Origin: a virus
UHGV virus genome: UHGV-0367476
Length of the DNA: 18,890 nt
Strand: one strand, 5' to 3'
Shown: positions 2,288-18,890 of the stretch, piece by piece
How the letters are laid out: every line of letters begins with the position of its first letter
How positions within the stretch are numbered: the first letter of the stretch is position 1
Notes under the pieces: model-generated
Seen by the model: the letters and a program-made list of their open reading frames with translations, nothing else
What the model was told of the DNA's origin: nothing
Database searches by the model: none
Translations under genes and position numbers: made by a program

Positions 2288-2857
2288 ATGAAACATTTAA
2301 TGATTGACCTTGAAACAATGGATAATAAACCGACTTCTGCGATTGCTTCTATCGGTGCTGTGTTCTTTGACCCTGAAACTGGCGAAATGGGTGAGCAGTT
2401 TTATCAGCGCGTTAGCCTGGGCAGCTGTGTAGGCCACGATCTCTCTATGGGTTCAGAAACCGTATCATGGTGGATGCGTCAGGATGCCGAAGCGCGTAGC
2501 GAGCTGCTTAATGATGATTGCCTGGACTTGCCTCTGGCTTTAGCGAATCTGGAATCCTTTATTACTGAGCATTCTGACCCATCTAAAGTGCAGGTGTGGG
2601 GGAATGGTGCGGCGTTCGACAATGTTATTTTACGTAATGCATCAGATAAATGCGGGTTTGCCGATCCACTTTGGTACTACTGGAATGACCGTGATGTAAG
2701 AACGGTTGTTGAACTGTCAAAAACACTTGGGCTGAATGTTCGTAATATTATTAAGTTTGATGGTGTTAAACATCACGCTTTATATGATGCCATTCATCAG
2801 GCTAAAGTTGTTTCTTATGTCTGGATGTATCTTGTAAAAATAGCCAGTGTGAAATGA
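2288..2857 (+). CDS. DEDDh-family 3'-5' exonuclease (DnaQ/Orn-like fold), 189 aa
   Basis: Exo I motif MIDLETM (D-x-E), Exo II WGNGAAFDNVIL, Exo III HHALYDA; AAGGAG Shine-Dalgarno before ATG. Confidence 0.85.
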   Translation: MKHLMIDLETMDNKPTSAIASIGAVFFDPETGEMGEQFYQRVSLGSCVGHDLSMGSETVSWWMRQDAEARSELLNDDCLDLPLALANLESFITEHSDPSKVQVWGNGAAFDNVILRNASDKCGFADPLWYYWNDRDVRTVVELSKTLGLNVRNIIKFDGVKHHALYDAIHQAKVVSYVWMYLVKIASVK

Positions 2858-3078
2858 CGATGCTTACAGTGACCTCTCATGCAAGTGAAAGTGTCATAGT
2901 AAAGGCATTTTCTGTGCTGACGGAATATTACAGCGGCAAAAAAGTATATCAGGTTATAAAACCGCATCATTATTTCTCTGTTCATGTTTCTTATCGCTGG
3001 CGATTACTGAGTAAGGATAAGGGCAGAAGCTGGGAACTAATGACACATGAGCGATATAACAAGCAGTACAGAATATAG
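2854..3078 (+). CDS. Small hypothetical ORF (74 aa), uncertain whether expressed
   Basis: ATG overlaps exonuclease stop (ATGA); AT-rich; weak ribosome-binding context; could instead be non-coding regulatory/origin DNA upstream of the replication gene. Confidence 0.35.
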   Translation: MTMLTVTSHASESVIVKAFSVLTEYYSGKKVYQVIKPHHYFSVHVSYRWRLLSKDKGRSWELMTHERYNKQYRI

Positions 3079-3117
3079 TTTTTGCCTTTTACCCATTATT
3101 TCACATCTGGATTATTT

Positions 3118-5775: not shown

Positions 5776-5777
5776 TT

Positions 5778-6095
5778 ATGTCAGAGCAAAATTACGAACA
5801 AAGGTCATTAAAACTGCTGGGGGTAACTGCCAGAATGCAAACACTGATGATTAACCAGAACATTACTCCGCTTGAACTGGTTAACTGCGCCAACGCAGCC
5901 CGCGCAATGTATCTGACGGCTACCAGCAACAAAAAGTATGAGTTAACAGGTTTGTTTTATTGTGATTTTTGCAACCGGGATAGTAGTGAAAAAGGAATGC
6001 TGCTTGTTGCGGGACTGCGTAATACTCACATTTGCTCTGAATGTGTTGATATTTGCCGTGAAACTCTCGATAAAAAAAGGCCATGCGGGGAATGA
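5778..6095 (+). CDS. Small protein with C-terminal ClpX-type C4 zinc-binding domain (105 aa)
   Basis: YCDFCNRDSSEKGMLLVAGLRNTHICSECVDIC compares closely with ClpX N-domain [33 protein letters not shown]; AT-rich; ATG 5778 immediately after primase stop. Confidence 0.75.
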   Translation: MSEQNYEQRSLKLLGVTARMQTLMINQNITPLELVNCANAARAMYLTATSNKKYELTGLFYCDFCNRDSSEKGMLLVAGLRNTHICSECVDICRETLDKKRPCGE

Positions 6096-6111: not shown

Positions 6112-6381
6112 TCAGGCCGCAAGACCAGCTTTAAGCAGATCCAGCGTCATTTGCTTCTGTTCAGGCGAGAAGGAATTGAGGATCGTCTGCACCATTAAGT
6201 CCCCGGTCTTAGCGCTGGGGCTTAACGTGTGCGAGAACGTCAGGTTAAGCACGAAGGTGTGACCACACTCCACGTCAGAACAGGCGCAGTAAATATCTGA
6301 AATATGCGGGTGCTTGGGATTCGTCTTTTTGATGATCGCCTTCGCCCCACACTCCGGACATTTAACTTTTAGTACCCGCAT
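6112..6381 (-). CDS. ogr: Ogr/Delta-family zinc-finger late-gene transcription activator (89 aa from ATG 6379-6381; track start 6435 would add 18 residues)
   Basis: C-x2-C-x22-C-x4-C spacing (CPEC ... CSDVECGHTF) identical to P2 Ogr CPLC ... CQNVNCSATF; GGAG 8 nt upstream of the internal ATG. Confidence 0.8.
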   Translation of the reverse strand: MRVLKVKCPECGAKAIIKKTNPKHPHISDIYCACSDVECGHTFVLNLTFSHTLSPSAKTGDLMVQTILNSFSPEQKQMTLDLLKAGLAA

Positions 6382-6434
6382 ATTCCGCGCTCCATGACCC
6401 TGAGAACGCCTATATTTTAGCCTTTTTGACGGCA

Positions 6435-7454
6435 TTAATCACCTTCCAGCTCACTGTCTTTCAGGAAATTAAGGTACAGGTGCGGCGGTACATCACTTTC
6501 CTGTCCCACTGCGGCGGTAAACATGCGCTGAATGGGTAAAATCTCTGCTTTGCGGTAGGTTTTGGCCGCTTTCTCAACATCTCCCATTACTGCGCCGTTC
6601 GTCGGGATAATCCCCGCCAGTCCTGCCGGGAAGCGATGCGCGGTCAGCACGTCCTGGGCGCTGATGCTCTTGATGTTCTGAAACTCATCTTTGGCGCTGA
6701 TATCGCCAATCGGGATAAATTTGATACCATCCGGATCGCCTTTGGGAATGTTCACGAACATGGTGCTGAAGTTTCCGATCCCCTTCGACTGTTCCAGCTT
6801 GCTGATAATCTCTTCTTCCACCTCGTCGGTCATGTTCGGATCATTAGAATAGATAATGCCCCCGGTGTGAGCGCCGTTGTGGTAGTAACGGCGGCGGAAG
6901 ATTGTTGCCTCACCGTTCAGCAGTGCGGAGTGAATGCCGCTGATGTAATCCGGCAGGCCATAGATCGCCTGCTGTGGGTCATACTGCTTCAGAAAAATGA
7001 TATCTTCAGGTGGGTAAATCATCGGTTCAGCCTGTTGCAGCACGACGAACTCTCCCGTTTTACGCTGGCGGGTATACAGCGCCGGCAGCGGGTACAGCGC
7101 CACCACATCCCCCCATCCGTTACGCACTTTCAGAATGGCCACATCACCGAACGTCAGCCAGTCGAATACCGCCGCACCCAGCTGTTCATGCGTCAGCCCG
7201 CCATTTTCGTAGTTGGCCGTCACCATATTGCGGCGGGCATACAGTACACCGCCATGCTGTGCATTGAGGTTAACCAGCTGCGCCAGTGCCAGCCGGTCAA
7301 TCGGCAGCGTCCAGTGCTCCGCCTCGTTGTCGTACCACACATCGGTATAGTTGGTACCAGTGGTCAGAATGGGTTCCGGTTTACCCAGGCTGATAAGGCT
7401 CATATGGCGCGGTTTTGGGGCGCTGCGGCGTTCCCTGAATTTGCGTTTCTTCAT
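6435..7454 (-). CDS. Q: Portal protein (P2 gpQ-like), 339 aa
   Basis: Size and position downstream of the large terminase on the leftward strand as in P2; start ATG overlaps terminase stop (ATGA). Confidence 0.85.
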   Translation of the reverse strand: MKKRKFRERRSAPKPRHMSLISLGKPEPILTTGTNYTDVWYDNEAEHWTLPIDRLALAQLVNLNAQHGGVLYARRNMVTANYENGGLTHEQLGAAVFDWLTFGDVAILKVRNGWGDVVALYPLPALYTRQRKTGEFVVLQQAEPMIYPPEDIIFLKQYDPQQAIYGLPDYISGIHSALLNGEATIFRRRYYHNGAHTGGIIYSNDPNMTDEVEEEIISKLEQSKGIGNFSTMFVNIPKGDPDGIKFIPIGDISAKDEFQNIKSISAQDVLTAHRFPAGLAGIIPTNGAVMGDVEKAAKTYRKAEILPIQRMFTAAVGQESDVPPHLYLNFLKDSELEGD

Positions 7455-9253
7455 GCTGCTTTCCCTAAGTTTCCCCAGCGGGATTTGCGCTGGTTTCCGT
7501 AATTGAGTGGTTCATTGTCGATGGCGTGGGCGATAGCCCAGAAACTGTCTGCGTGTCCTGTTTCTGCTGTGCGATCGGCGACGAATGTCATCGCGTTGCC
7601 GCTGGCCGTGGACGTGCGGCGGATGGTCATAAAGCTGGCGGCGATTTCGGTCTTCTCCTTATCCCATTCCACGCGGCCGTCTTCGATTACGTCAATCATC
7701 TTCATCACCAGACGATTTTTGGTCTCGACGCCGTAGCGGATCGCGACCGCCTGACGCATGGCAAAGTGCTGAACATCTTCAAAGACACCGCTTCCAAGCC
7801 CGGTGATATCAATGCCGATGTAGGTCATGTTGTACTGGCCAAACAGCTTTTTGATTTGTGCCGCCTGCCACTTCCAGTTCATCCCCTGCCAGTGGAAGAC
7901 ACGCAGCACGCGAAATTTTTCGCCGGCCAGTACGGGAGGCGCGACTATCACAAAGGTGGACGTGTCGCCGCTGCGTGCCGGGTCATAGCCCGCCCACACT
8001 TCGCGGTTGCCGAACGGTCGGGGCAAGTTTTCGTCATGGTCTTCCCATGTGGCAGGATCCACACAGCAGCGTTCAACATGGGAAAACGAAAATACGCTGT
8101 CTTTACTGTCCACAAACACGCACATATAGAGCATGTTGAACGTGTCGCGGTTGTAGCGGTTGCGTAGCTTCTCGATGCTGGCCAGGTTGTAGCCACCCGC
8201 GATAGCGTCTTCCATCGTAATGATGTAACGCCACTGGCCGTCAGGACAAAGCCGCCCACCGTCGCGCAGCTCTTTATCGGTCGGGAATACTGTTCGTGCG
8301 CGCTTTTTGTCGCCGCGCTTCCATTCCTCGCCTGTCCAGAACGGGTACGCCTGGTGGGTCTTGCTGCTTGGCGTGGAAAAGTAGGTGGTGCGCCATTTAT
8401 CAATCGTGGCCATTGCGCTGGCCACTTCATTCAGTTTGGCGAAGTTCGGAACCCAGAAATATTCATCACAGTACAGATGGCCGTTATAGGACTGTGCGGT
8501 ATTTTTGTTGGTGGACAGGAAGCGCAGCTCCGCGCCGTTGGACAGACGGATGGGGTTGCCGGTGAGTTCCACGCCAAAATACTGCTCTGCGATGTTGACG
8601 ATGTAGCTGCGAAAGACTTCCGCCTGGGCTTTGGATGCAGAGAGAAAAATTTGCGGATCGCCTGTCATAACCGCACTTTCAAAGGCTTCTATCGAAAAAT
8701 ACCAGGTAGCGCCAATCTGGCGGCTTTTGAGTATATTTCTGACCTGCTGGCCAAGATTGGCTCGCAGATGTTTTTGATAGCCGAAGAAATGCTCTGCGGC
8801 GAATGCGTCAAAATCCTCCTGAGTAAGTTTGCTGATATCGTTCTTTTTGTATTTTCCGCGTTTACCCGATTTATCCCCATCACCAGACTGGCGCGGTGCA
8901 GCTCCATCTTCGCCGCCACGGTGTTTAATTTCGGCCAGCTTTTCCTGATGCTTATTATGCTGCGCACGGAGTTTCACCAGATGGGCTACGAGGCTGTCCA
9001 GCTCGCGTAGCTCCAGCTCTGATTTTCCCTCTCGCAGCGTCAGCGACTGCACGCGGCGATTCAGCGCGTCTTCCGTGGATTCATGACTGAGCAGTTCCGC
9101 CCAGCAATATTTCTCCGCCCAGTAATAAACAATTCGCCGGTTGGGTAAGTTAAGTTCGCTGGCAATTTCCTGCGGTGTATAGCGCTTCAGGTATAGCGCC
9201 CTTGCCACTCCTTTTAGTTCTTCACTGTATTTTGCCATTGGCTTCCTTGCCAT
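7451..9253 (-). CDS. P: Terminase large (ATPase) subunit (P2 gpP-like), 600 aa; alternative start at 9238 has the better AAGGAAG ribosome-binding site
   Basis: Size matches P2 gpP (~590 aa); divergent from scaffold/capsid genes; long uninterrupted frame. Confidence 0.88.
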   Translation of the reverse strand: MARKPMAKYSEELKGVARALYLKRYTPQEIASELNLPNRRIVYYWAEKYCWAELLSHESTEDALNRRVQSLTLREGKSELELRELDSLVAHLVKLRAQHNKHQEKLAEIKHRGGEDGAAPRQSGDGDKSGKRGKYKKNDISKLTQEDFDAFAAEHFFGYQKHLRANLGQQVRNILKSRQIGATWYFSIEAFESAVMTGDPQIFLSASKAQAEVFRSYIVNIAEQYFGVELTGNPIRLSNGAELRFLSTNKNTAQSYNGHLYCDEYFWVPNFAKLNEVASAMATIDKWRTTYFSTPSSKTHQAYPFWTGEEWKRGDKKRARTVFPTDKELRDGGRLCPDGQWRYIITMEDAIAGGYNLASIEKLRNRYNRDTFNMLYMCVFVDSKDSVFSFSHVERCCVDPATWEDHDENLPRPFGNREVWAGYDPARSGDTSTFVIVAPPVLAGEKFRVLRVFHWQGMNWKWQAAQIKKLFGQYNMTYIGIDITGLGSGVFEDVQHFAMRQAVAIRYGVETKNRLVMKMIDVIEDGRVEWDKEKTEIAASFMTIRRTSTASGNAMTFVADRTAETGHADSFWAIAHAIDNEPLNYGNQRKSRWGNLGKAA

Positions 9254-9423
9254 AATTCATCTGTTTATTAATAAGCGAATTATTCAGCAATTCAGCCGCG
9301 ATTTTTGAAAATTAATTCTGCTGAGTTCGGTTATTGCTTATATCCGAATTTCACCGAAATAATTGGAATGCGTGGGTGTATTTTATTGGTGATACTGAGC
9401 CTCGCAGAATGAACGGAGGCAAT
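9254..9423. promoter_or_regulatory. Divergent late-promoter region between terminase P (leftward) and scaffold O (rightward)
   Basis: 170-bp AT-rich intergenic region at the P/O divergence, as for P2 late promoters; contains tandem AATTCAGC repeat (about 9291-9306) and CCGAA repeats; no TGT-N12-ACA dyad found. Confidence 0.55.
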
Positions 9424-10263
9424 ATGTCAGGTTCACAACTGGCAACAAACTGGATTTGTATCGCCACTGCGGGTGAAACGGTCGATAAAAGAACCATTGA
9501 AGAACAATGGTTACTTGATGCCGCTGAATTATATGACCCCAATTTATATACCGCGCTGTTATGGCCGGAACATACCCGCAATTTCGGGAATATGGGGGAA
9601 GTGCTGGAAGTAAAAGCCGAGCGGGATGATGAAGGTATTCTTCGTTTATACGCCCGACTCTGTCCGGCTATAGCGTTGCTTCAGGCGAATGCGAAGGGGC
9701 AGCTTTTATTTTTATCACCGGAGTTTACACCGGACGGGAATTTCAGAAATACCGGGAAAACCTATCTTGAGGGGCTGGCCATTACTGACAGTCCGGCCGG
9801 GGTAAGCACCACACGGCTACGTTTCAGCCGCACCAGGGGAAAACGCATCGGACCATACAAGCCGCTGGCGTTTGATGAAGTCAGGGAATTTAAAAAGGAA
9901 AAGGGAATGTCAAAGACAGCGAAAAAGGGCTGGCGCCATTTTTTCAGTATCGAAGAACCGGAGCAGACCCCGGAGCAGGAACCTTCACAGTCTGATGCCT
10001 TACAGGCGCTGGCTGAAGCGCTGGATGCCATTGATAAGCGCGTATCTGCTATTGAAACCCGTCTGGGTGAGGCGGAAGAAGCGGTATCTGATGTGCAGGA
10101 CGATGTGGACACCGTGAAGGAAGTGGTGGACACCGAAGATTTTGCGCGTCTGGTGGGGAACCTGCCGGAGCTGGTGAAAAACTTCAGCAAGCTGAATAAC
10201 AAAGTTACTCAACTGCCGGACAAGAAATTCAGCAAGGGCAAAAAAGGCTTCAATTTCCTGTAA
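9424..10263 (+). CDS. O: Capsid scaffolding protein (P2 gpO-like), 279 aa from ATG 9424
   Basis: GGAGG 4 nt upstream of ATG; position and size match gpO; acidic coiled-coil-like C-terminal half; track start 9334 is an upstream extension. Confidence 0.85.
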   Translation: MSGSQLATNWICIATAGETVDKRTIEEQWLLDAAELYDPNLYTALLWPEHTRNFGNMGEVLEVKAERDDEGILRLYARLCPAIALLQANAKGQLLFLSPEFTPDGNFRNTGKTYLEGLAITDSPAGVSTTRLRFSRTRGKRIGPYKPLAFDEVREFKKEKGMSKTAKKGWRHFFSIEEPEQTPEQEPSQSDALQALAEALDAIDKRVSAIETRLGEAEEAVSDVQDDVDTVKEVVDTEDFARLVGNLPELVKNFSKLNNKVTQLPDKKFSKGKKGFNFL

Positions 10264-10297
10264 GGGATAACACTACTTTTCTTTAAGGAAAAAGAAT

Positions 10298-11326
10298 ATG
10301 CAATTAAATGCGAAAGCCCGTGAGTTTCTGCTTCAGTATCACACCGGGCTGCGTGAATCCTACGGGGCGACCGACAGCGAACGCTGGTTTGCACTCACCG
10401 ACCCCAAAGAAACCCAGCTGCGCAATGCGCTGATGGAGCAGTCTGATTTCCTGAATCTGATCACCGTTGCCGATGTCGATCAGCTGCAGGGGCAGGTGGT
10501 TCCGGTTGGCAGCTCTGGCCTGTATACCGGGCGTGTACTGGATGGCCGCTTCCGTAAGAAAGTGGGCGTGAGTGGTAATGATTACAGTCTGGTCGAGACC
10601 GACTCATGCGCCGCACTCACCTGGCAGTTGCTTTCTGTCTGGGCGAACGCCGGCGATGAAAACGAGTTTTTCCAGCGTGTTCAGGAGTTCACTAATCAGG
10701 CGTTTGCGCTGGATATGCTGCGTATCGGCTTTAACGGTACCAAAGTGGCCGAAACCACGAACGCGGAAACCAACCCGAACGGCGAGGATGTGAACAAGGG
10801 CTGGCATCAGATCGTCAAAGAGTGGAAGGACGGCCAGCAGATCATCACTGATGCGGTGGTGCTTGACGGTGACGGGAAAGGCGATTACGTGTCGCTGGAT
10901 GCAATGGCCTCCGACCTTATCAACGCCAAAATCCCGGCACAGTACCGTAATGATCCACGCCTGGTGGTTCTTGTCGGCGCTGATCTGGTCGCGGCGGAGT
11001 CGTTCCGTCTGTATCAGAAAGCAGACAAACCCACGGAGAAGATCGCTGCGCAACTGCTGTCTGACAGCATCGCTGGCCGCACGGCCTACGTACCGCCGTT
11101 TATGCCAGGCAAACGCATGATTGTTACGACACTGCCAAACCTGCACATCTATACCCAGCGCGGCACGCGTCAGCGTAAAGCGGAGTTTGTGGAAGACCGT
11201 AAACAGTACGAAAACAAATACCTGCGTAACGAAGGTTATGCGGTTGAGTATCCGGAACTGTACGCCGCGTTTGATGAAAGTGCGGTAGCTATCGGGGCAC
11301 CTGTCGCGCCTCCGGCAGGCGAGTAA
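10298..11326 (+). CDS. N: Major capsid protein (P2 gpN-like), 342 aa
   Basis: Shared blocks with P2 N as recalled (GFNGTK..., GDYVSLDA...); AAGGA Shine-Dalgarno; position after scaffold. Confidence 0.9.
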   Translation: MQLNAKAREFLLQYHTGLRESYGATDSERWFALTDPKETQLRNALMEQSDFLNLITVADVDQLQGQVVPVGSSGLYTGRVLDGRFRKKVGVSGNDYSLVETDSCAALTWQLLSVWANAGDENEFFQRVQEFTNQAFALDMLRIGFNGTKVAETTNAETNPNGEDVNKGWHQIVKEWKDGQQIITDAVVLDGDGKGDYVSLDAMASDLINAKIPAQYRNDPRLVVLVGADLVAAESFRLYQKADKPTEKIAAQLLSDSIAGRTAYVPPFMPGKRMIVTTLPNLHIYTQRGTRQRKAEFVEDRKQYENKYLRNEGYAVEYPELYAAFDESAVAIGAPVAPPAGE

Positions 11327-11336
11327 GGGGGATTTA

Positions 11337-12050
11337 ATGCAACTGTCACCGGCACAGCGCCACAGCGCACGAATTGAAGCGGAGCGGTTACTGCGACAGC
11401 AGCAGTCTCTGGACACGGAAACCAGCCTGCATATTCAGATTGTCGCGCTGGAGAAAGATGTCGCCGCAGCTGCAGCGATTGAAAGCCGCGCTGAGCGAAT
11501 GGAATTTAAGCGTGATGTGCTGTTACCGCGCTGGATGCCAACCGCGCAATCCTGGCTGGAAGGTGACAGTGTGCAACAGAATCCTGTTTTTGCCTGGTGT
11601 GTCGTCTGGCTGTTTGATACAGGCCAGTTTGACCAGGCGCTGGACTGGGCGGATGTGGCAATCCAGCGGGGGCAGGAAACCCCGGCCGCGTTCGGCAGCG
11701 CGTTCCCGGTGTTTGTGGCGGATACGGTGTTGTCCTGGGCGGAAGCGGAAGCCGTACAGGGGCATGATGTGGAGCCGTATTTTGGCCGTACGCTGGAAAA
11801 CGTGACGCAGCACTGGAATGTGTATGAGGTCATTAAGGCCAAATACCTGAAGTTTGCCGGTCTGCACCTGCTACGCGATGAAAACGGAGAGCCACGCGCA
11901 GCGGCAACGGAAGACAGGGAAGTATTGCTCCGGGCTAAGGAACTGCTGGAGCAGGCGAAGGGATTCGACCCTAAATGTGGTGTCGGCACGATGTTGCAGC
12001 GTATTGCTGCGCGTCTGCGGGCGCTGAAAAAAGAGTCTACGGGAGTTTGA
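11337..12050 (+). CDS. M: Terminase small subunit (P2 gpM-like), 237 aa
   Basis: Position after capsid gene, size close to gpM (247 aa), GGGGG ribosome-binding site. Confidence 0.85.
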   Translation: MQLSPAQRHSARIEAERLLRQQQSLDTETSLHIQIVALEKDVAAAAAIESRAERMEFKRDVLLPRWMPTAQSWLEGDSVQQNPVFAWCVVWLFDTGQFDQALDWADVAIQRGQETPAAFGSAFPVFVADTVLSWAEAEAVQGHDVEPYFGRTLENVTQHWNVYEVIKAKYLKFAGLHLLRDENGEPRAAATEDREVLLRAKELLEQAKGFDPKCGVGTMLQRIAARLRALKKESTGV

Positions 12051-12051
12051 T

Positions 12052-12243
12052 ATGTCGTTTAAGCATGAGTTAGGCCAGGTTGTTGAAGTTTCCATTAGCG
12101 GCGAAGAGGGGCATATCAAAGCCCGTGCGGAGTACACCAACAGCTGCAATCAGTATCTGATCCACTATCAGACTGCTGACGGCCGCGCATCTGATGCGTG
12201 GTTTGAAGAAGGTGAGATTCAGGCCGCAAAACGCGGCGAGTAA
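12052..12243 (+). CDS. Small hypothetical protein (63 aa) inserted between M and L
   Basis: ATG overlaps M stop region with GGGAG ribosome-binding site; no P2 counterpart at this position; followed by a structured hairpin and T-tract. Confidence 0.55.
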   Translation: MSFKHELGQVVEVSISGEEGHIKARAEYTNSCNQYLIHYQTADGRASDAWFEEGEIQAAKRGE

Positions 12244-12252
12244 GACTACCGA

Positions 12253-12323
12253 CCCGAAAGCGGGCGCGGTGGAGGGGATCGCATAAGCGTATCGCCCGTG
12301 GAAACCGGCCAGCCCGCTTTTTT
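12253..12323 (+). terminator. Structured region with hairpins (CCCG-AAAG-CGGG at 12253-12264; GCGGGC...GCCCGC pairing) ending in T6 (12318-12323): possible partial terminator/attenuator
   Basis: Inverted repeats followed by tttttt directly upstream of the L ribosome-binding site. Confidence 0.35.
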
Positions 12324-12336
12324 CCGGAGAAACAGG

Positions 12337-12789
12337 ATGTTCAGCGGAACTTCAATTGATTTTGACGATGCCACTCTGACGAATGATGGCTTCTGGCCTG
12401 ACCTGAGCGTGAAGGATTTTCAGTCCCAGCGCACCATTCCGGCCGATATTGATGCGGCCACCATCCGCCAGGCACTGCTGACTGCAGCCGGCGAAATCAA
12501 TGATGATCTGGTCAGTGTGGCGGCAAGGTATCGCAATGCTGGCCATGAGCGCGCGGCGGACGTTCCGGGCGTGGAAATTGACGGCGAAAATCTGTTGTGC
12601 GCCCGTTATCGCAAAGCGGTATATGCACGTGCCAAAGCTGATTTGATGGGCGAATTTGCGTCTGTTGGTCGCCGTGAGAGCCATCCGGGGCAGGAAAGTG
12701 ACGAAACCCGCTCCAGCCTGATTGCAGAGTCCACACTGGCAGTACGCCGCATCAAAGGGCTGAAACGCATTACGGTGGCCATGATATGA
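12337..12789 (+). CDS. L: Head completion/stabilisation protein (P2 gpL-like), 150 aa from ATG 12337
   Basis: N-terminal GFWPDLSVKDF...RIP motif resembles gpL as recalled; position after M; GGAG ribosome-binding site; the track GTG start at 12298 lacks support. Confidence 0.8.
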   Translation: MFSGTSIDFDDATLTNDGFWPDLSVKDFQSQRTIPADIDAATIRQALLTAAGEINDDLVSVAARYRNAGHERAADVPGVEIDGENLLCARYRKAVYARAKADLMGEFASVGRRESHPGQESDETRSSLIAESTLAVRRIKGLKRITVAMI

Positions 12790-13268
12790 GCCAGTTAACG
12801 GCATTAACCGATTTTCTCATTGCGAACATGCCCAGACGGGCAATGCAGGGATTTGACAGTCAGATGGACGAGATCGCGTTCATCCCGGCACAGCGGGACA
12901 CCGGGCTGGGGCAGTACCGTATTGCCATCATCCGTTATAACGCCGTGCTGACGTGGGAGCGTTATCCTTACCGCGAGTACGATCCCAAAATCCTGATGGC
13001 TTTGTTTATGTCGTGGCTTTGCCAGGATGAGCGCACGCTCTTTGAGGAAACCGGCATTGACGCCGAGCTGCCGGAATTTGATATCGAAACCATCGACCAG
13101 GAAACCGCCATCATGGTGGTGACGCTGCCAATGGTGGAGGAACTTAATCTGGTTCCCGATCCCAAAGGCCAGATCCCGTTTGATGGCCAGCGCTGGAAGC
13201 TGGCAAACCCCGAAGTCTGGACGGCTGATGAGGTGACGGTGATCCCGGTCAGTGAGGGGCAGGAATGA
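12786..13268 (+). CDS. Phage structural protein, putative tail completion/neck protein (R-like by position only), 160 aa
   Basis: Translationally coupled to L (ATATGA overlap) and to the following gene; no motif recognised. Confidence 0.5.
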   Translation: MSQLTALTDFLIANMPRRAMQGFDSQMDEIAFIPAQRDTGLGQYRIAIIRYNAVLTWERYPYREYDPKILMALFMSWLCQDERTLFEETGIDAELPEFDIETIDQETAIMVVTLPMVEELNLVPDPKGQIPFDGQRWKLANPEVWTADEVTVIPVSEGQE

Positions 13269-13969
13269 TAAATGGCGAGCTGAACAAGGAACAGTTCCGC
13301 CAGCTCCAGGAGGCGCTGAAAAAACTGGATTTACCTTCTGCGAAACGTCGCCGGCTGTTGTGGCGTATGGCGAAATACGGCGTGGAAGCCGCAGCAAAGC
13401 GTAATGTGCGCAATCAGCAGTCGCCGGAGGGTGATAAGTGGCAGGCGCGACAGACCCGGCGTAAAGGCAAAATGTTGCGCAATATGCCGAAACTGATCCG
13501 CATCCGGGAAATGCCTGAAACAGAGTCGGTCAGGCTGTATCTGGCCGGTGGTCATTACCGGAATGCGAAGGGAAATCTGCCTGCCGGCGTGGTGGGGTAT
13601 GTCCAGCAGAACGGCATGAGCGTGACCGTCAACCGTAAGCAGGTGGAAGGCCGTGAGCAGGGGGACAAGCCTGCATCACTGCGACAGGCGAAACGTCTGC
13701 GCAAGGCCGGGTATAAAGTCAGGCGCGGTAAGCGCTGGCGTAAGCCCGGTTATAAGGAAATACAGGAAAGGATGACCGCCAGACAGGCAGGTTTGCTTAT
13801 CCGGATACTGGAGGACAAACCGGTCAAAACGTCCTGGCAGATTGATTTACCTGCCAGGGCGTTTCTGGGGATAGGTCAGGATGATTTTAACAAAGCGCTG
13901 GCGCGACAGCTGCAGGCTATCGGGTTCGGCTGGGATGTTAACGCGCAGGATATCAGGGGGAGAGCATGA
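13265..13969 (+). CDS. Virion morphogenesis / tail completion protein (P2 gpS family-like) with a long Lys/Arg-rich insertion, 234 aa
   Basis: N-terminal ...KRRRLLWRMAKYGVEAAAKRNVRNQQSPEGDKW... pattern resembles the P2 S family as recalled; position before the sheath gene. Confidence 0.65.
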   Translation: MINGELNKEQFRQLQEALKKLDLPSAKRRRLLWRMAKYGVEAAAKRNVRNQQSPEGDKWQARQTRRKGKMLRNMPKLIRIREMPETESVRLYLAGGHYRNAKGNLPAGVVGYVQQNGMSVTVNRKQVEGREQGDKPASLRQAKRLRKAGYKVRRGKRWRKPGYKEIQERMTARQAGLLIRILEDKPVKTSWQIDLPARAFLGIGQDDFNKALARQLQAIGFGWDVNAQDIRGRA

Positions 13970-15093
13970 CCTGGCCAATTGTGACCGTAAACCAGGTAAA
14001 TCAGCTGCTGGGTGAAACCACGGAAGTGGAGCGCACGCTGCTGTTTATCGGCACGGGAACCAAAAATGTAGGTAAGACGCTGGCAGTTAACGCACAGAGT
14101 GATTTTGATGCGCTGCTGGGCGAGGGTGACAGCCCGTTAAAAAGTGATGTGCTGGCCGCACTGGCGAACGCCGGCCAGAACTGGTGGGGATTTGTTCATG
14201 TGCTGGCCGCAGACAGTGAGCCGGGGGCATGGGTGGAGGCCGTTAAGGCCGCACAGGTCTCCTGTTCGGTGGAAGGTGTGGTGCTGTCTGATGATGTGGC
14301 CGCGAAAGCGCAGATTAATCAGGCGGCAACGCTGCGATCTGAACTGATTGCTAAATACGGGCGCTGGGTGTGGTTCATTCTGGCGGTTCAGGGGATGCAG
14401 CAGGATGAAGCCCAGGCGGATTATCTGGTGCGTCTGTCCACCCTTCAGGAAGGTATCGCGGAAAAAGCGGTACAACTGGTACCCCGTCTCTGGGGGAATG
14501 AACCGGGCGTGCTGGCTGGTCGTCTCTGCAACCGTGCTGTCACTATTGCCGACAGTCCGGCGCGGGTGAAAACAGGCGCGTTGCTGAGTCCAGGAAGCGA
14601 TGAACTGCCGAAAGACGGTACCGGCGAAACGCTGGAACTGGCGACCCTTCAGGCGCTGGAAGCTCAGCGCTACAGCGTGCCGATGTGGTATCCGGACTAT
14701 GACGGCTTTTACTGGGCTGACGGGCGCACGCTGGACGTTGAGGGCGGTGATTACCAGTCCATCGAGACGCTGCGTATTGTGGATAAGGCAGCACGCCGCG
14801 TCCGTCTGCTGGCCATCGGTAAGATTGCCGATCGCTCACTTAACAGTACACCGGGCAGTATTGCCGCACACCAGACGCTGTTTGCCCGTCCGCTGCGGGA
14901 AATGTCCACTGCGGCCAGCATTAACGGCGTGTCATTTCCGGGCGAGGTGAAACCTCCACAGGACGGTGACGTGACCATTGTCTGGAAGAACAAAAAGGCG
15001 GTGGATATTTACATTGTGGTGCGTACGTATGAAGTACCGCTGCAGATCACCATCAGTCTGTTACTGGATGCAAGTCTGGAGGCCAGCGCATGA
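13966..15093 (+). CDS. Putative contractile tail sheath protein, 375 aa
   Basis: Assignment by order and size only: first of two genes preceding chaperone and tape measure (sheath-tube-chaperone-TMP pattern); AGGGGGAG ribosome-binding site. Confidence 0.55.
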   Translation: MTWPIVTVNQVNQLLGETTEVERTLLFIGTGTKNVGKTLAVNAQSDFDALLGEGDSPLKSDVLAALANAGQNWWGFVHVLAADSEPGAWVEAVKAAQVSCSVEGVVLSDDVAAKAQINQAATLRSELIAKYGRWVWFILAVQGMQQDEAQADYLVRLSTLQEGIAEKAVQLVPRLWGNEPGVLAGRLCNRAVTIADSPARVKTGALLSPGSDELPKDGTGETLELATLQALEAQRYSVPMWYPDYDGFYWADGRTLDVEGGDYQSIETLRIVDKAARRVRLLAIGKIADRSLNSTPGSIAAHQTLFARPLREMSTAASINGVSFPGEVKPPQDGDVTIVWKNKKAVDIYIVVRTYEVPLQITISLLLDASLEASA

Positions 15094-15545
15094 CCAAACG
15101 TATTTCAGGGATGTCCTTTGATATCTATCTGGACGGTGACCTGATCCACATTGAAAAAATTTCGCTGGATATTACCGATAACAGCGCCGCCGCACAGACG
15201 CGCGGTGTTCCTGACGGGTATGTGGACGGTGACGTTGCCGCCGAGGGTGAAATTGAAGTCAGCTCCAAAGTGCTGCAGGTTCTGACAGCCAAAGCCCGTT
15301 CAGCGGGGTCATGGCGTGGTATTCCCCCGGTTGACTTCCTTTTTTACGCCAAAGCCGGCAGCGAAGAAATGAAGGTGGAAACCTTTGGTAACAAGCTGCA
15401 GCTCAACAGCGTTCTGGATGGTGATCCGAAGGGTGGCAGTGTGTCCACGCATAAAATCAAATACTTCGTGACAAGTCCGAAGTTCGTCAACATCAACGGT
15501 GTGCCGTATCTGGAAGCGGAAGCCACGGAAAACCTGATTGGATAA
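15090..15545 (+). CDS. Putative tail tube protein, 151 aa
   Basis: Coupled to preceding gene (ATGA overlap), GGAGG ribosome-binding site, size typical of myophage tube proteins; assignment by synteny. Confidence 0.55.
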   Translation: MTKRISGMSFDIYLDGDLIHIEKISLDITDNSAAAQTRGVPDGYVDGDVAAEGEIEVSSKVLQVLTAKARSAGSWRGIPPVDFLFYAKAGSEEMKVETFGNKLQLNSVLDGDPKGGSVSTHKIKYFVTSPKFVNINGVPYLEAEATENLIG

Positions 15546-15557
15546 GAGGCAGCAGGG

Positions 15558-15854
15558 ATGCAGGAGTACGAAAAGGGGTTCATTGCACTGGCAGTCATGG
15601 GGGCGCTGATTGCGCTGGGTAAATTGCTCAACAGTGATGAACCGATCACCCTTCGTCTGGTGGCGGGGCGTGTCATTGTGGGCAGCGGGCTGTCACTGAT
15701 TGCCGGGGTGGCGCTGTACTTTGTCCCGGATATTCATCCGCTCGCGCTGGCCGGATTTGGCTCTGCGTTGGGTATTCTGGGACAGAACGTGGTGGAAGCC
15801 TGGCTGCGTAAGCGGGGGTTTACAGGGATTTTTGATAAAGGGACAGGGAAATGA
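15558..15854 (+). CDS. Holin (three predicted transmembrane segments), 98 aa
   Basis: Hydrophobic stretches GFIALAVMGALIALGKLL, VIVGSGLSLIAGVALYFV, LALAGFGSALGILGQNVV; charged C-terminus; immediately upstream of and overlapping the endolysin gene. Confidence 0.8.
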   Translation: MQEYEKGFIALAVMGALIALGKLLNSDEPITLRLVAGRVIVGSGLSLIAGVALYFVPDIHPLALAGFGSALGILGQNVVEAWLRKRGFTGIFDKGTGK

Positions 15855-16192
15855 CTCTGAGCGAAAAACAGCAACTCTTTACCGTTATGGTGGCAAATCT
15901 GATCCAGTGGGCTGAAGAACATGGCTACCGGCTGACGTTTGGTGAGGCTTACCGTACCCCGGAACAGGCTGCACTGAACGCGAAAAAAGGCAGCGGCATT
16001 TCCAGCAGTCTGCACACGCAGCGTCTGGCCGTGGACTTCAATCTGTTCATTAATGGCCAGTATCAGACCGACAGCGCGGCGTATCTGCCGCTGGGTGAAT
16101 ACTGGGAATCGCTGGGTGGTTCATGGGGCGGTCGCTTCAAATCCCGCCCTGATGGTAATCATTTCAGCCTGGAACATAACGGGGTGCGCTGA
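15851..16192 (+). CDS. Endolysin, peptidase M15 (L-alanyl-D-glutamate / VanY-like zinc peptidase), 113 aa
   Basis: Motifs AYRTPEQ, LAVDF and DGNHF consistent with the M15 zinc-binding H...D...H arrangement; sits between holin and spanins. Confidence 0.85.
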   Translation: MTLSEKQQLFTVMVANLIQWAEEHGYRLTFGEAYRTPEQAALNAKKGSGISSSLHTQRLAVDFNLFINGQYQTDSAAYLPLGEYWESLGGSWGGRFKSRPDGNHFSLEHNGVR

Positions 16193-16524
16193 TGGATCGC
16201 GTCGTGTCAGGCTGGTTATTCACCCTTGCTCTGGCATTTATAGCCGGCTGGAAAACGGCCGGCTGGCAGCGGGACAGTGTTGATCTGACTGTCTCAAAAG
16301 CGGTCACCGCGACCGGGGAACAACTGGCTGAAATTGCCGGTTCATCTGGTCGCCGGCTGGAAGACAAACTGGAGGCACTGAAAAATGCGCCACCGCGTGA
16401 AATCCGCACGGAAGTGGTTAAGCCGGTATTTACCAATAAGTGTCTGTCTGATGACTTTGTCCGCATGTACAACGACGCCGTCACCAGTACCGAACGTACG
16501 TTATCAGGAAAACCTGAAAACTAA
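16192..16524 (+). CDS. i-spanin (Rz-like), N-terminal transmembrane anchor, 110 aa
   Basis: N-terminal TMD WLFTLALAFIAGW followed by charged periplasmic domain; start overlaps endolysin stop (TGATG). Confidence 0.75.
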   Translation: MDRVVSGWLFTLALAFIAGWKTAGWQRDSVDLTVSKAVTATGEQLAEIAGSSGRRLEDKLEALKNAPPREIRTEVVKPVFTNKCLSDDFVRMYNDAVTSTERTLSGKPEN

Positions 16525-16684
16525 ATGCGCCACGCAGCTGCCGCGCCTGAGTGGAACGCAGGGAAAAAATGCGGCGGAATTACTGACACTTTATCTGGAG
16601 TTATACGGGCAGTGTGCTGCACGGCATAACGCGCTTGTTGATGAAATTAATTTAAGAGAGAACGTTATTTATGGAAAAAATTAA
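16385..16684 (+). CDS. o-spanin (Rz1-like lipoprotein), overlapped +1 frame with the i-spanin 3' end and extending beyond it, 99 aa
   Basis: Signal peptide with lipobox L-S-A-C, Pro/Thr-rich mature N-terminus (CTTTPSPVP), additional Cys residues; GGAGG ribosome-binding site. Confidence 0.75.
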   Translation: MRHRVKSARKWLSRYLPISVCLMTLSACTTTPSPVPNVRYQENLKTKCATQLPRLSGTQGKNAAELLTLYLELYGQCAARHNALVDEINLRENVIYGKN

Positions 16685-16928
16685 TCTGGTTGTATGCGAA
16701 AAAGAAATCACCTTTGAACCGAATCAGACCGCTTATAATAAGTTCATCAACGAAATGGCGATGGATAATAAAGTGGCACCTGCACACAATTATCTTGTGC
16801 GCATTGTGTCTGCTGAAAGTAAAGAGGCGCTGGATGATATTCTGAAACGTCCGGGCGCAGCGATCCAGTTGGCCGGGAAAGTGAATGAACTTTATGCGCC
16901 AGAACTGGAAATTGAAGTAAAAAACTGA
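16671..16928 (+). CDS. Tail assembly chaperone (P2 gpE / lambda gpG analogue), 85 aa
   Basis: Small acidic protein immediately upstream of the tape measure gene; ends in slippery sequence A_AAA_AAC. Confidence 0.7.
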   Translation: MEKINLVVCEKEITFEPNQTAYNKFINEMAMDNKVAPAHNYLVRIVSAESKEALDDILKRPGAAIQLAGKVNELYAPELEIEVKN

Positions 16929-17119
16929 CAAAACGAGTCCGGGCAATTGAACAGAACGGACTCGAACAGTATTTAATTTTGCGTCGCCATTATTTACCAC
17001 ACGGTCAGGATTCCGTGGATGATATTTCCGCTGCGATCTGGCTGGATAATCGCCACTGGGAAAATATGCGAATAGCGGTTGCTAACGGAATCAGCACTGC
17101 ATTTAAAGGCACGGAATGA
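16671..17119 (+). CDS. Tail assembly chaperone frameshift fusion (E+E' / G-T analogue), about 149 aa via -1 ribosomal frameshift at 16919-16925
   Basis: The -1 frame is open for 64 codons from 16925 to stop TGA at 17117-17119 with no start codon of its own; stop overlaps the tape measure ATG. Confidence 0.65.
16919..16964 (+). promoter_or_regulatory. Programmed -1 frameshift signal: slippery heptamer A_AAA_AAC (16919-16925) plus downstream hairpin CGAGTCCG-15nt-CGGACTCG (16934-16964)
   Basis: Heptamer is in the X_XXY_YYZ register of the chaperone frame; perfect 8-bp stem begins 8 nt after the heptamer. Confidence 0.65.
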
Positions 17120-18890
17120 AACAGTTAGATTTTACATTAAGCCTGATTGATAAGCTGACGCGCCCGTTAAAACAGGCGCAGGGCAGCGTCACCGGCTTTG
17201 CGGAAAAATCAAAAGCGGCCTTTTCGCAGATTGGTGGCGGCGTGCTGGGACTGGTTGGCACGGGAATGGCCATAAAAGGCGCGTTATCGCCGGCTATCGA
17301 AATGTACGACGCGCTGAATGATGCCGCTGCAAAAGGGATTGATAACCAGGCATTAAAGACCGTACAGCGTGACGCGCTCCGGTTCAGCATGACCTACGGT
17401 GCCAGCGCGGTGGAGTTCGTCAAATCCACAGAGAACATTAACGCGTCCATTGCCGGCCTTACCGCCAGCGAGTTGCCGAAAGTGACGAAGGTCGCTAATA
17501 CGCTGGCATTTGCCCTGAAATCCACATCCGCCGACACGGCGGAGTTCATGGGGCAGATGTACGGTAACTTTTCCGACGATGCGGCGCGGCTGGGTAAAGT
17601 CCAGTTCGCCGAGCAACTGGCGGGAAAAATGGTGTATATGCGCAAGGTCTTCGGTACCGAAATGGGGACCATCAAAGACCTGATGGAAGGGGCGCGGGGT
17701 GTCGGGACTAACTACGGCGTCGGGCTGGATGAACAGCTGGCGGTGCTGGGGCAGCTCAACCGTACGCTGGGAACAGAAGCCAGCAGCGCTTACGAAGGCT
17801 TCATGACCGGCGCGATGGAGGGCGCTAAAAAGCTGGGGCTGTCCTTTACGGACTCCACCGGCAAAATGCTGTCCATGCCTGAAATGCTGATCAAGCTGCA
17901 GGGCAAATACGGCAAAAGCCTGGAAGGGAACCTGAAAGCCCAGGCGGAGCTGGATGCGGCATTTGGTGACAGTTCAGCGGTGATAAAACATCTGTACGGC
18001 AATGTGGCGTTACTGCAGCGTAATATCACCGAACTGGGCGGCTCTGACGGGCTGAAGCGTACACAGGAGATGGCCGGGAAGCTGGTCAAGCCGTGGGATC
18101 GCTTTGTACAAATCCTCAAAGCCATTCAGACGGTGATCGGACTGACGTTGATCCCGGTTCTGTACCCGGTCCTGAACCGTCTGGCCGATATGGGGCAGAC
18201 GTTCGGCCGCTGGATGCAGATGTTTCCCAATATTGCGCGGGTGATTGGTTACGTGCAGCTTGCGCTGTTTGGTGTGGCGGCAGCGGGCGCGGTGACAAAT
18301 ATTGTCATGGGCGTCTCAAAATTTATCCTGGTGGGACTGAAGGGACTCTGGAGCGCCCTGACGCTGGTCACGAAGATTTACACGGCCACGGTCTGGGTTG
18401 CCTCCAAGGCTGTTGTGGTGTGGAACCTGACGCTGAAATTCCTGCGGGGTACGCTGCTGGCCGTGCGTATGGCGGCGATAATGGCCGGTATTGGCATCAA
18501 CCTGATGAGCTGGCCGGTTCTGCTGGTTATCGGGGCGATTGCTCTGCTGGCTGCCGGGTGTTATCTGCTGATTAAACACTGGGATGATGTGAAAGCGGCG
18601 GTGATGAATACGGCAGCGTTTACCGCCGTGGCTGGTGTGGTGGAATGGCTTGCCGGCGTGTTTTCCGCTGCGTGGCAATGGATCACGGACGGCTGGAACA
18701 GCTTTATTGCGCTGCTGACCGGGTTTTCACCGTCACAGGCGTTAAGCGGCATGGCCAGCGGGATTGTTTCCCTGTTTGATAACGTCTGGCAGACCATCAA
18801 AGGCGGGTTCCTGAAATCGTGGAACTGGATTGTCGGAAAACTCAATAAAATTCCGGGCGTCGATATTTCACTGGCGAACGAATCTCAACC
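17116..18890 (+). CDS. Tail tape measure protein, 5' portion (591 codons; continues past window end)
   Basis: Every codon from ATG 17116 to the window edge was checked by hand and no stop found; Ala/Gly-rich with long hydrophobic segments typical of tape measure proteins; absent from the ORF track, presumably because no stop lies in the window. Confidence 0.85.
   Translation, partial: MKQLDFTLSLIDKLTRPLKQAQGSVTGFAEKSKAAFSQIGGGVLGLVGTGMAIKGALSPAIEMYDALNDAAAKGIDNQALKTVQRDALRFSMTYGASAVEFVKSTENINASIAGLTASELPKVTKVANTLAFALKSTSADTAEFMGQMYGNFSDDAARLGKVQFAEQLAGKMVYMRKVFGTEMGTIKDLMEGARGVGTNYGVGLDEQLAVLGQLNRTLGTEASSAYEGFMTGAMEGAKKLGLSFTDSTGKMLSMPEMLIKLQGKYGKSLEGNLKAQAELDAAFGDSSAVIKHLYGNVALLQRNITELGGSDGLKRTQEMAGKLVKPWDRFVQILKAIQTVIGLTLIPVLYPVLNRLADMGQTFGRWMQMFPNIARVIGYVQLALFGVAAAGAVTNIVMGVSKFILVGLKGLWSALTLVTKIYTATVWVASKAVVVWNLTLKFLRGTLLAVRMAAIMAGIGINLMSWPVLLVIGAIALLAAGCYLLIKHWDDVKAAVMNTAAFTAVAGVVEWLAGVFSAAWQWITDGWNSFIALLTGFSPSQALSGMASGIVSLFDNVWQTIKGGFLKSWNWIVGKLNKIPGVDISLANESQ

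Follow-up and report, generated by a model that had tools for sequence, protein, structure and literature searches.

Phage P2 carries its lysis genes in the order L-X-Y-K-lysA-lysB-lysC-R-S, between L/X and R/S, as the sequence-only reading of the present locus had correctly described, and its tail genes FI-FII-E-E'-T lie in a separate operon. P2 Y is a class I holin, according to PMC5247547, which cites the work of To et al. 2013, and the P2 spanin genes lysB and lysC exemplify the overlapped architecture as defined in a 2018 spanin census (PMC6139136). Members of the HP1-like branch (K139, phiO18P, phi3, ESSI-2, and others) have a different common order, which runs gpL, gpR, gpS, DUF2586 sheath, Orf24 tube, lysis genes, frameshifting chaperone, and tape measure. 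In the GenBank annotation of HP1 itself (NC_001697/U24159), the genes hol and lys stand after orf24. For Smhb1, an HP1/K139-like phage, the presence of an M15 endolysin at this position is already on record (PMC8537503), and the ESSI-2 spanin pair was included in the census as an overlapped two-component system, in which the i-spanin is a singleton and the o-spanin is grouped with that of phage 9NA (PMC6139136).

The stretch of viral DNA analyzed here (the window; 18,890 nucleotides) is closest to Escherichia phage ESSI2_ev239 (NC_049392.1/LR597637.1; Peduoviridae, Evevirus), which comes from viromes of the infant gut (Mathieu et al. 2020, PMC6969025) and is already in GenBank with annotation. 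DNA identity to this phage is 96.3% over the 96% of the window that is covered and 98.8% over positions 13900 to 17200, and the lysis proteins are 97 to 99% identical to their ESSI2_ev239 counterparts. The window contains P2-type head genes (Q, P, O, N, M, and L), for which Pfam matches were Phage_portal, Terminase_6N/6C plus Terminase_5, Phage_GPO, Phage_cap_P2, Phage_term_smal, and Phage_GPL, together with an Ogr/Delta late regulator. The prophage is present in 40 of 5,426 complete Escherichia coli genomes, where PGAP names its proteins “phage holin family protein” and “M15 family metallopeptidase.” In 13 complete E. coli genomes, the identity of the prophage is 96%.

Four tightly packed lysis genes occupy positions 15558 to 16684 on the plus strand: a holin, an M15 endolysin, an i-spanin, and an o-spanin that overlaps the i-spanin gene. 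The open reading frames called for them in the sequence-only reading have exact coordinates, each has Pfam and/or PHROG family support, and the identities given to them, including an overlapped spanin pair with an LSAC lipobox, are borne out by Pfam, PHROG, and motifs. The cassette is also as compact as had been claimed, with overlapping or short junctions throughout. Between the tube stop codon and the holin ATG are 12 nt, the holin and endolysin genes overlap at ATGA, the i-spanin start lies on the endolysin stop in a TGATG overlap, and the 3' end of the o-spanin gene overlaps the chaperone gene by 14 nt. Translational coupling of the cassette genes is suggested by this arrangement. We conclude, with a probability of about 0.92, that an ESSI-2/HP1-type temperate myovirus, whose nearest relative is Evevirus ev239, here carries its standard lysis module in the usual slot, and that the slot is conserved in the lineage as its contents are exchanged between phages. 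The cassette is a canonical system of holin, endolysin, and spanins from a phage lineage already described and, as such, is itself already known.

The flanks proposed for the cassette, sheath and tube upstream and chaperone and tape measure downstream, were confirmed by Pfam and PHROG. Reassignment of the genes at 13966 to 15545 to other functions had been named beforehand as grounds for abandoning the proposal; both genes keep their tail function. The first (13966 to 15093, plus strand, 375 aa) encodes a DUF2586-type tail sheath (Pfam E value of 5.4e-137; PHROG 907, 1.9e-169) that is 84% identical to the ESSI-2 sheath, also of 375 aa and included in a study of sheath evolution (PMC9230969), and 56% identical to the HP1 sheath. 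The second (15090 to 15545, plus strand, 151 aa) encodes a tail tube of the HP1 Orf24/DUF2597 family (Phage_HP1_Orf24, 8.7e-63; PHROG 1182 tail protein) that is 61% identical to HP1 orf24. Downstream is a gpE-like tail assembly chaperone (16671 to 16928, plus strand, 85 aa; Phage_TAC_10, 8.7e-36), near the end of which we found a slippery heptamer, A_AAA_AAC, at 16919 to 16925. The heptamer is followed by a 64-codon extension in the -1 frame, which is open from 16925 to 17119, so that the feature as a whole spans 16919 to 17119 on the plus strand. A heptamer (AAAAAAC, AAAAAAA, or AAAAAAG) with an extension of 60 to 64 codons was kept in all 12 sequences compared, namely, the window and 11 relatives, HP1 included, and we predict from the sequence that the chaperone is also made as a gpE+E'-like frameshift product, a fusion of 149 aa. 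The 5' part of a tape measure gene (17116 to 18890, plus strand; PhageMin_Tail, 9.9e-22), whose ev239 counterpart is annotated as tape measure, then runs off the window.

The placement of the cassette had been presented as unusual, and that claim does not stand. The annotated order in the ESSI2_ev239 record is tail sheath, tail protein, holin, endolysin, Rz-like spanin, chaperone, and tape measure, and the order L-R-S-sheath-tube-[lysis]-chaperone-tape measure was found without exception in 12 of 12 Peduoviridae genera inspected. These were represented by ESSI2_ev239, ESSI-2, ev129, Yersinia phage vB_YenM_324, Salmonella phage SW3, HP1, K139, phiO18P, phi3, C5a, yong1, and SMHB1, a sample of 12 genera out of 76 phage records with a tube homologue. 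The hosts of phages sharing the order include Haemophilus, Vibrio, Aeromonas, Pseudomonas, Pseudoalteromonas, and Salinivibrio, among others, and in the vB_YenM_324 record an “O-spanin” is annotated in the same slot. Most of the phages compared have homologous L, R, S, sheath, tube, and chaperone proteins on the flanks; the cassette proteins have matches only in the enterobacterial subset of them. The sequence-only reading had itself said that a gene order standard for the phage genus would overturn its claim, and a standard order is what the synteny comparison returned. By gene order, placement of the lysis genes between tube and chaperone is the normal and long-known arrangement of HP1-like P2 relatives.

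A lineage-specific insertion or relocation, splitting a once contiguous sheath-tube-chaperone-tape-measure block in this phage, is what a comparison with P2 alone would suggest, since P2 keeps FI-FII-E-E'-T contiguous and the order here appears rearranged against it; the gpY-like holin also implies some exchange with P2-type phages. We consider this explanation very unlikely. The lysis genes occupy the same slot in every genus inspected, and the sheath and tube come from families other than P2 FI/FII, with no match in P2 by tblastn. HP1 tail genes in general lack similarity to those of P2, according to PMC2771037. Because the slot is shared by 12 genera, from Haemophilus phage HP1 to Salinivibrio phages, the arrangement is ancestral to the HP1-like branch rather than specific to this phage.

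The holin (15558 to 15854, plus strand, 98 aa) belongs to the P2 gpY family, with matches to Pfam Phage_holin_3_2 (E value of 7.6e-40; 135.7 bits; cutoff, 25) and PHROG 175. It is 43% identical to P2 gpY over 86 aa by BLASTP (E value of 2e-21), and its hydropathy peaks, at about residues 7 to 24, 34 to 57, and 61 to 80, are co-linear with the peaks in P2 Y; the third is weaker (Kyte-Doolittle score of ~1.6). The C-terminal tail, RKRGFTGIFDKGTGK, is basic, with a net charge of +4. Judged by its sequence, this protein is a true homologue of P2 gpY. We also considered a dual-start (antiholin) motif and rejected it: the open reading frame offers only one start, Met does not recur until codon 14, and a LysA-like gene is absent.

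The second gene (15851 to 16192, plus strand) encodes a 113-aa M15 (putatively LAS-fold) zinc peptidase, assigned by Peptidase_M15_4 (43.7 bits; cutoff, 25) and by matches to four PHROG endolysin families. All of its homologues carry PF13539, and the family comprises 3,083 database clusters across Enterobacterales. Twenty-two homologues keep H55, D62, D101, and H104 unchanged, and these residues make up a zinc-site motif, H55-x6-D62 plus D101-G-N-H104 (H-x6-D ... D-x-x-H, the second part of which is the catalytic motif of such enzymes). In a profile alignment to Ply500 (2vo9), H55 and D62 fall on the SNHNYGVAVD segment and H104 falls on the DYPHF segment. In the structures of Ply500 and the T5 enzyme, the corresponding motif residues act as ligands. 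The AF2 model is of moderate confidence (pLDDT of 77.6), and its top four Foldseek matches in the PDB are all L-Ala-D-Glu peptidases (E values of 5e-3 to 4e-2; TM scores of ~0.5): the endolysins Ply500, LysECD7, and EndoT5 and the Serratia L-Ala-D-Glu endopeptidase ChiX (5opz). These are the nearest relatives of solved structure, and they make L-Ala-D-Glu the most likely bond to be cleaved. Sequence searches of the PDB gave marginal matches with the single sequence (2mxz, E value of 0.18; 2vo9, 0.48), which ranked below irrelevant ones, and a slight gain with a profile (2vo9, 0.0038), so the endolysin call is based on Pfam, motif conservation, and the fold search. No hydrophobic segment, and thus neither a signal nor a SAR anchor, was found in the 113 residues, which is what would be expected of a soluble, cytoplasmic, holin-dependent enzyme.

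Such a short protein, which lacks a cell-wall-binding domain, has only marginal sequence matches to solved endolysins, and falls in a Pfam family named “D-alanyl-D-alanine carboxypeptidase,” might instead be a VanY-like protein for wall remodeling or immunity, or else a lysin associated with the virion; the true endolysin would then lie at another locus. Several observations make this highly improbable. The gene lies between the holin and the spanin genes, has start and stop codons that overlap those of its neighbors, and occupies a position that is taken by GH24 or other endolysins in HP1, K139, phi3, C5a, and SMHB1; the PHROG matches are to endolysin families, and the nearest folds are those listed above. 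Furthermore, no second muralytic gene was seen in the window, outside of which lie the last ~10 kb of the phage. An endolysin of the M15 class is the identity that we retain.

The i-spanin (16192 to 16524, plus strand, 110 aa) has one hydrophobic segment, at residues 3 to 20, that would serve as an N-terminal membrane anchor. It matches PHROG 1152 (Rz-like spanin; E value of 5.7e-35) and no Pfam family. The o-spanin gene (16385 to 16684, plus strand) lies in the +1 frame relative to the i-spanin gene, with which it shares 140 nt before continuing for 160 nt beyond, and this is the overlapped architecture. It encodes a 99-aa precursor of a predicted outer-membrane lipoprotein, in which Cys28 of the LSAC lipobox is followed by Thr at +2 and there is no inner-membrane retention residue. 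The full-length frame and the lipobox Cys are kept in ev239, ESSI-2, ev129, and Yen324; SW3 has the variant TSGC. Matches were to PHROG 2425 (1.9e-32) and, less strongly, to PHROG 456, Rz-like spanin (1.6e-5). Membership in the P2 LysB and LysC sequence families was considered and rejected, given single-pair BLASTP E values of 0.006 (LysB) and 4e-4 (LysC) over short segments and a Pfam LysC score of 20.4 bits, under the cutoff of 27; the proteins thus appear to be LysB/LysC-like in architecture only. That the frame at 16385 to 16684 is a chance overlap, in a phage with an Rz-like protein alone or a unimolecular spanin, is the least likely of the alternatives that we weighed: the ev239 record leaves it unannotated, and neither the Pfam LysC threshold nor significant similarity to P2 LysC is reached, but a GGAGG Shine-Dalgarno sequence lies 9 nt upstream of the ATG, the match to PHROG 2425 is strong, the frame, the signal peptide with its lipobox Cys, and a C-terminal CAARHN motif are kept in five relatives (47 to 97% identity) as the overlapping i-spanin frame diverges, and homologues are annotated in YenM_324 and listed for ESSI-2 in the spanin census (PMC6139136).

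On the minus strand, positions 6112 to 6435 encode an Ogr/Delta-type zinc-finger protein (Pfam Ogr_Delta, E value of 2.8e-17), which is likely to activate the late operon in which the cassette lies. A scan of positions 9000 to 18890 against promoter and terminator consensus sequences found no sigma-70-like promoter and no convincing terminator bordering the cassette; Ogr-dependent late promoters are outside the reach of such a scan. What the same crude scan did pick up was a single weak promoter-like site, well downstream, along with eight terminator-like sites, a number below that expected from shuffling. With no bordering sites, the scan gives no sign of the cassette being transcribed on its own. 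The four lysis genes would instead be transcribed late, as an internal part of a long head-tail operon that is probably activated by the phage's own zinc-finger protein. The gpY-type class I holin would build up in the inner membrane and then trigger, forming holes that let out the soluble M15 peptidase, which would cut the peptide stems of peptidoglycan, most likely at the L-Ala-D-Glu bond. The i-spanin in the inner membrane and the o-spanin lipoprotein in the outer membrane would associate in a complex that reaches across the periplasm and fuse the membranes after loss of the wall. We infer that the cassette is active in lysis. We speculate that its location amid the tail operon links the dosage of holin to the production of tails and in this way sets lysis timing.

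The contents of the slot vary among the phages compared. According to Pfam, the slot endolysin is a Phage_lysozyme in HP1, K139, and phi3, Pesticin-like in C5a, and M15_3 in SMHB1; an M15_4 endolysin was found in the slot of the present phage and of ESSI-2-type phages. Phages of Proteus, Pseudomonas, and Vibrio carry the next relatives of the M15_4 peptidase. With Salmonella phage SW3, the endolysin shares 89% identity, but the holin, spanins, and tube around it are only 43 to 52% identical, and DNA similarity to SW3 begins and ends at the boundaries of the endolysin gene (15850 to 16194). This jump in identity is a signal that supports the exchange of individual lysis genes. One may view the tube-chaperone junction of HP1-like peduoviruses as a fixed “lysis slot” where phage families have traded lysis genes one by one as well as in whole cassettes, making the cassette here a chimera; we find the evidence for this view evenly balanced. 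Its parts would then be a P2 gpY-type holin, an M15_4 peptidase, and an o-spanin of the group that includes that of Salmonella phage 9NA.

These results carry little weight beyond annotation hygiene. They show that P2 is an unsafe template for gene order across all Peduoviridae, given that lysis genes of the HP1 type come after the tail tube. They also point to two annotation gaps in deposited relatives, in which the overlapped o-spanin frame is absent or truncated and the frameshifted chaperone product is entered as a separate small open reading frame. An M15 endolysin of 113 aa with a large family in Enterobacterales prophages could interest those engaged in enzybiotic work, although similar enzymes, EndoT5 and LysECD7, have already been characterized. 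EndoT5 and LysECD7 are likewise small single-domain enzymes from phages of Gram-negative hosts. Along with ChiX, the best folds for the present endolysin are EndoT5 (2mxz), the catalytic domain of Ply500 from Listeria phage A500 (2vo9), and LysECD7 (8q2g), with which the zinc-site motif aligns; identity to these three is only ~21 to 24%, with marginal E values, and the Pfam subfamily here is M15_4 (VanY-like).

The cassette resembles that of P2 in lying inside a late morphogenetic operon, in the presence of an Ogr/Delta-type regulator, and in having a gpY-homologous holin and overlapped spanins; it differs in its position, after the tube rather than between L/X and R/S. The contrast with the P2 cassette that had been drawn from the sequence holds in part: the endolysin is of a different class and LysA is absent, but the holin is homologous and the spanin architecture is shared. 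No similarity was detectable between the endolysin and P2 gpK. The latter, called lysozyme-type in the sequence-only reading, is annotated as an endolysin and itself matched no Pfam family at an E value of ≤1e-3. In the corresponding slot of HP1 and K139, there is a Phage_holin_2_3 holin with a GH24 lysozyme, neither of which is homologous to the cassette here, and K139, phiO18P, phi3, C5a, and yong1 have an extra DksA-like zinc-finger gene after the tube, to which phiO18P adds a methyltransferase. ESSI2_ev239 is in essence the same phage, with an identical cassette order and a sequence divergence of a few percent from the window; its RefSeq record differs in leaving the o-spanin frame unannotated and in listing the frameshift extension of the chaperone as a separate hypothetical protein.

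The lysis genes at 15558-16684 (the cassette) lie between the tail tube and tail chaperone genes, an interval that we call the slot, and this placement is the known, standard organization of HP1-like Peduoviridae. The finding is not new, and the annotated genome of Escherichia phage ESSI2_ev239 (Peduoviridae, Evevirus) is nearly identical: it matches the whole window at 96.3% identity over 96% and positions 13900-17200 at 98.8%, and its RefSeq annotated order (tail sheath, tail protein, holin, endolysin, Rz-like spanin, tail assembly chaperone, tape measure) is that of the window. Related prophages were detected in 40 of 5426 complete E. coli genomes. A search with the tube protein returned 76 phage records, from which one record per genus was inspected for gene order in 12 genera: Evevirus (ESSI2_ev239), Seongnamvirus (ESSI-2), Hpunavirus (HP1), Longwoodvirus (K139), Bielevirus (phiO18P), Phitrevirus (phi3), Quadragintavirus (ev129), Tresduoquattuorvirus (YenM_324), Irrigatiovirus (SW3), Catalunyavirus (C5a), Yongunavirus (yong1), and Playavirus (SMHB1). 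All 12 have the order gpL, gpR, gpS, sheath, tube, lysis-gene block, chaperone, tape measure, with a lysis-gene block of 1.1-2.4 kb; in the HP1 record, orf24 is followed by hol and lys.

The sequence-only reading had called this placement unusual in comparison with P2, a claim that a gene order standard for the genus would refute by that reading's own terms, and such a standard order is what we found, in 12/12 genera. Its account of P2 was right: P2 encodes lysis between L/X and R/S and keeps FI-FII-E-E'-T contiguous. P2 is the wrong yardstick for the HP1-like branch.

The layout of the window is that of a temperate myovirus of the P2 family. A tyrosine integrase (Int_N and Phage_integrase) is encoded on the minus strand at 186-1226; on the plus strand, the left end has as its longest ORF 48-1265 (405 aa), which has no family match and is a shadow ORF antisense to the real integrase. 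The window also encodes an HTH repressor and Cox, a Toprim primase at 3082-5775, and an Ogr/Delta zinc finger at 6112-6435 (minus strand). Upstream of the primase, in the early region, we detected a protein with an Rv2179c-like 3'-5' exoribonuclease domain (2288-2857; E 1e-67); the ORF directly after it (74 aa; 2854-3078) has a ParE-like toxin domain (E 1.4e-16). Downstream of the primase is a 115-aa ORF with a ClpX-type C4 zinc finger (5748-6095; E 3e-10).

Portal and large terminase are on the minus strand, and the scaffold, P2-type capsid, small terminase, and gpL, gpR, and gpS homologues are on the plus strand. Small terminase and gpL are separated by a 63-aa ORF (12052-12243) that has no Pfam match; at the same place, ESSI2_ev239 encodes a hypothetical protein, and ev129 has a 78-aa ORF labelled “tail fiber protein,” a label that looks doubtful. 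Downstream of the gpS homologue come a DUF2586 tail sheath (375 aa; 13966-15093) and a tail tube of the “HP1 Orf24” family (151 aa; 15090-15545), and the cassette is followed by a Phage_TAC_10 tail chaperone (16671-16928) and the tape measure (from 17116). The chaperone gene ends in a slippery heptamer, A_AAA_AAC (16919-16925), at which a -1 shift would give a 64-codon extension to 17119 that overlaps the tape-measure start. Heptamer and extension (60-64 codons) are kept in 12/12 sequences, comprising the window and 11 relatives including HP1, and represent the gpE/E'-type programmed -1 frameshift signal, which confirms what the downstream flank is. The extension is given in some records as a separate ORF; in ESSI2_ev239, it is a “hypothetical protein” (gp10).

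The cassette genes are real and were identified correctly. The sequence-only reading had placed the four ORFs exactly, and their identities are backed by Pfam and PHROG: a holin at 15558-15854 (Phage_holin_3_2, 135.7 bits versus a cutoff of 25; PHROG 175), an M15 peptidase at 15851-16192 (Peptidase_M15_4, 43.7 bits versus a cutoff of 25; four PHROG endolysin families), an Rz-like i-spanin at 16192-16524 (PHROG 1152, E 5.7e-35), and an o-spanin ORF at 16385-16684 (PHROG 2425, E 1.9e-32, with weak matches to Rz-like and LysC profiles). The compact junctions it described are likewise borne out. Between the tube stop and the holin ATG are 12 nt; the holin gene overlaps the endolysin gene at ATGA, and the endolysin gene overlaps the i-spanin gene at TGATG. 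The o-spanin start, with GGAGG ahead of it, is in the +1 frame and 140 nt inside the i-spanin gene, and the o-spanin ORF has a 14-nt overlap with the gene that follows. We found no promoter or terminator at either border of the cassette.

The endolysin has no hydrophobic segment. It is matched by 3083 database clusters at E <= 1e-5, and the matches listed carry the name M15 family metallopeptidase, their sources being Salmonella, Klebsiella, Serratia, Citrobacter, Yersinia, and other Enterobacterales. H55, D62, D101, and H104 are invariant in an alignment of 22 sequences and, in a profile alignment to Ply500 (2vo9), fall on its H...D and D-x-x-H-F segments. The four best PDB matches of the AlphaFold model (pLDDT 77.6), all with modest scores, are Ply500, LysECD7, ChiX, and EndoT5, each an L-Ala-D-Glu M15 peptidase. 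Membership in M15 is supported, and we infer the bond cut.

The i-spanin has a single N-terminal anchor, and the o-spanin has the lipobox LSAC (Cys28, Thr at +2). ESSI2_ev239, ESSI-2, ev129, YenM_324, and SW3 all retain the o-spanin ORF, including the signal peptide with lipobox Cys and the C-terminal motif CAARHN, and ESSI-2 is among the overlapped two-component systems in a 2018 phage spanin census (PMC6139136). The YenM_324 record labels the homologue “O-spanin,” and that of ESSI-2 labels it “hypothetical protein.” The ORF is unannotated in ESSI2_ev239 (NC_049392.1, 11486-11785) and appears in the ESSI2_ev129 record (NC_049394.1, 4795-5094) only in a truncated form of 62 aa, although it is conserved there at its full 99 aa, signal peptide and lipobox included.

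The cassette would be transcribed late, within the head-tail operon; its borders lack a promoter or terminator, and an Ogr/Delta-type regulator is present. Family knowledge suggests that the holin would then trigger and let out the cytoplasmic M15 peptidase, peptidoglycan would be broken down, and the spanin complex would fuse the inner and outer membranes.

It is the content of the slot, not its position, that varies. In tblastn searches of window proteins against the fetched loci, the flanks were homologous in most HP1-like phages (window gpS had no match in HP1, nor the chaperone in K139), whereas the four lysis proteins matched only an enterobacterial subset (ESSI-2, ev129, YenM_324, and SW3). 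The slot endolysin is a GH24 Phage_lysozyme in HP1, K139, and phi3, a pesticin-like muramidase in C5a, and a Peptidase_M15_3 in SMHB1; the holins of HP1 and K139 are Phage_holin_2_3. An M15 endolysin with a three-TMD class I holin without a dual start was already reported for Smhb1 (PMC8537503). A DksA/TraR-like zinc-finger gene directly follows the tube at the head of the slot in K139 (4462-4671), phiO18P (4466-4675), and phi3 (4444-4653), and in the same position in C5a (3969-4169) and yong1 (3984-4202); the window and ESSI-2-type phages are without it. In phiO18P, a DNA methyltransferase lies between holin and endolysin.

The window endolysin shares 89% protein identity with its SW3 homologue, versus 43-52% for the tube, holin, and spanins. 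DNA similarity to SW3 is confined to the endolysin gene (15850-16194; SW3 4258-4599, 77% identity), with none in the holin and spanin genes (43-47% protein identity); this sharp boundary is ordinary phage mosaicism.

Similarity of the spanins to P2 LysB/LysC is not significant, and the Pfam LysC score is below threshold, so the pair shares the P2 architecture, not a demonstrated sequence family. The holin is 43% identical to P2 gpY (E 2e-21), the class I holin that To et al. 2013 analysed, as cited in PMC5247547. Its hydropathy peaks (~7-24, 34-57, and a weaker third at 61-80) and C-terminal tail (charge +4) are co-linear with those of gpY. The holin is a genuine homologue of gpY, which makes the cassette partly P2-type.
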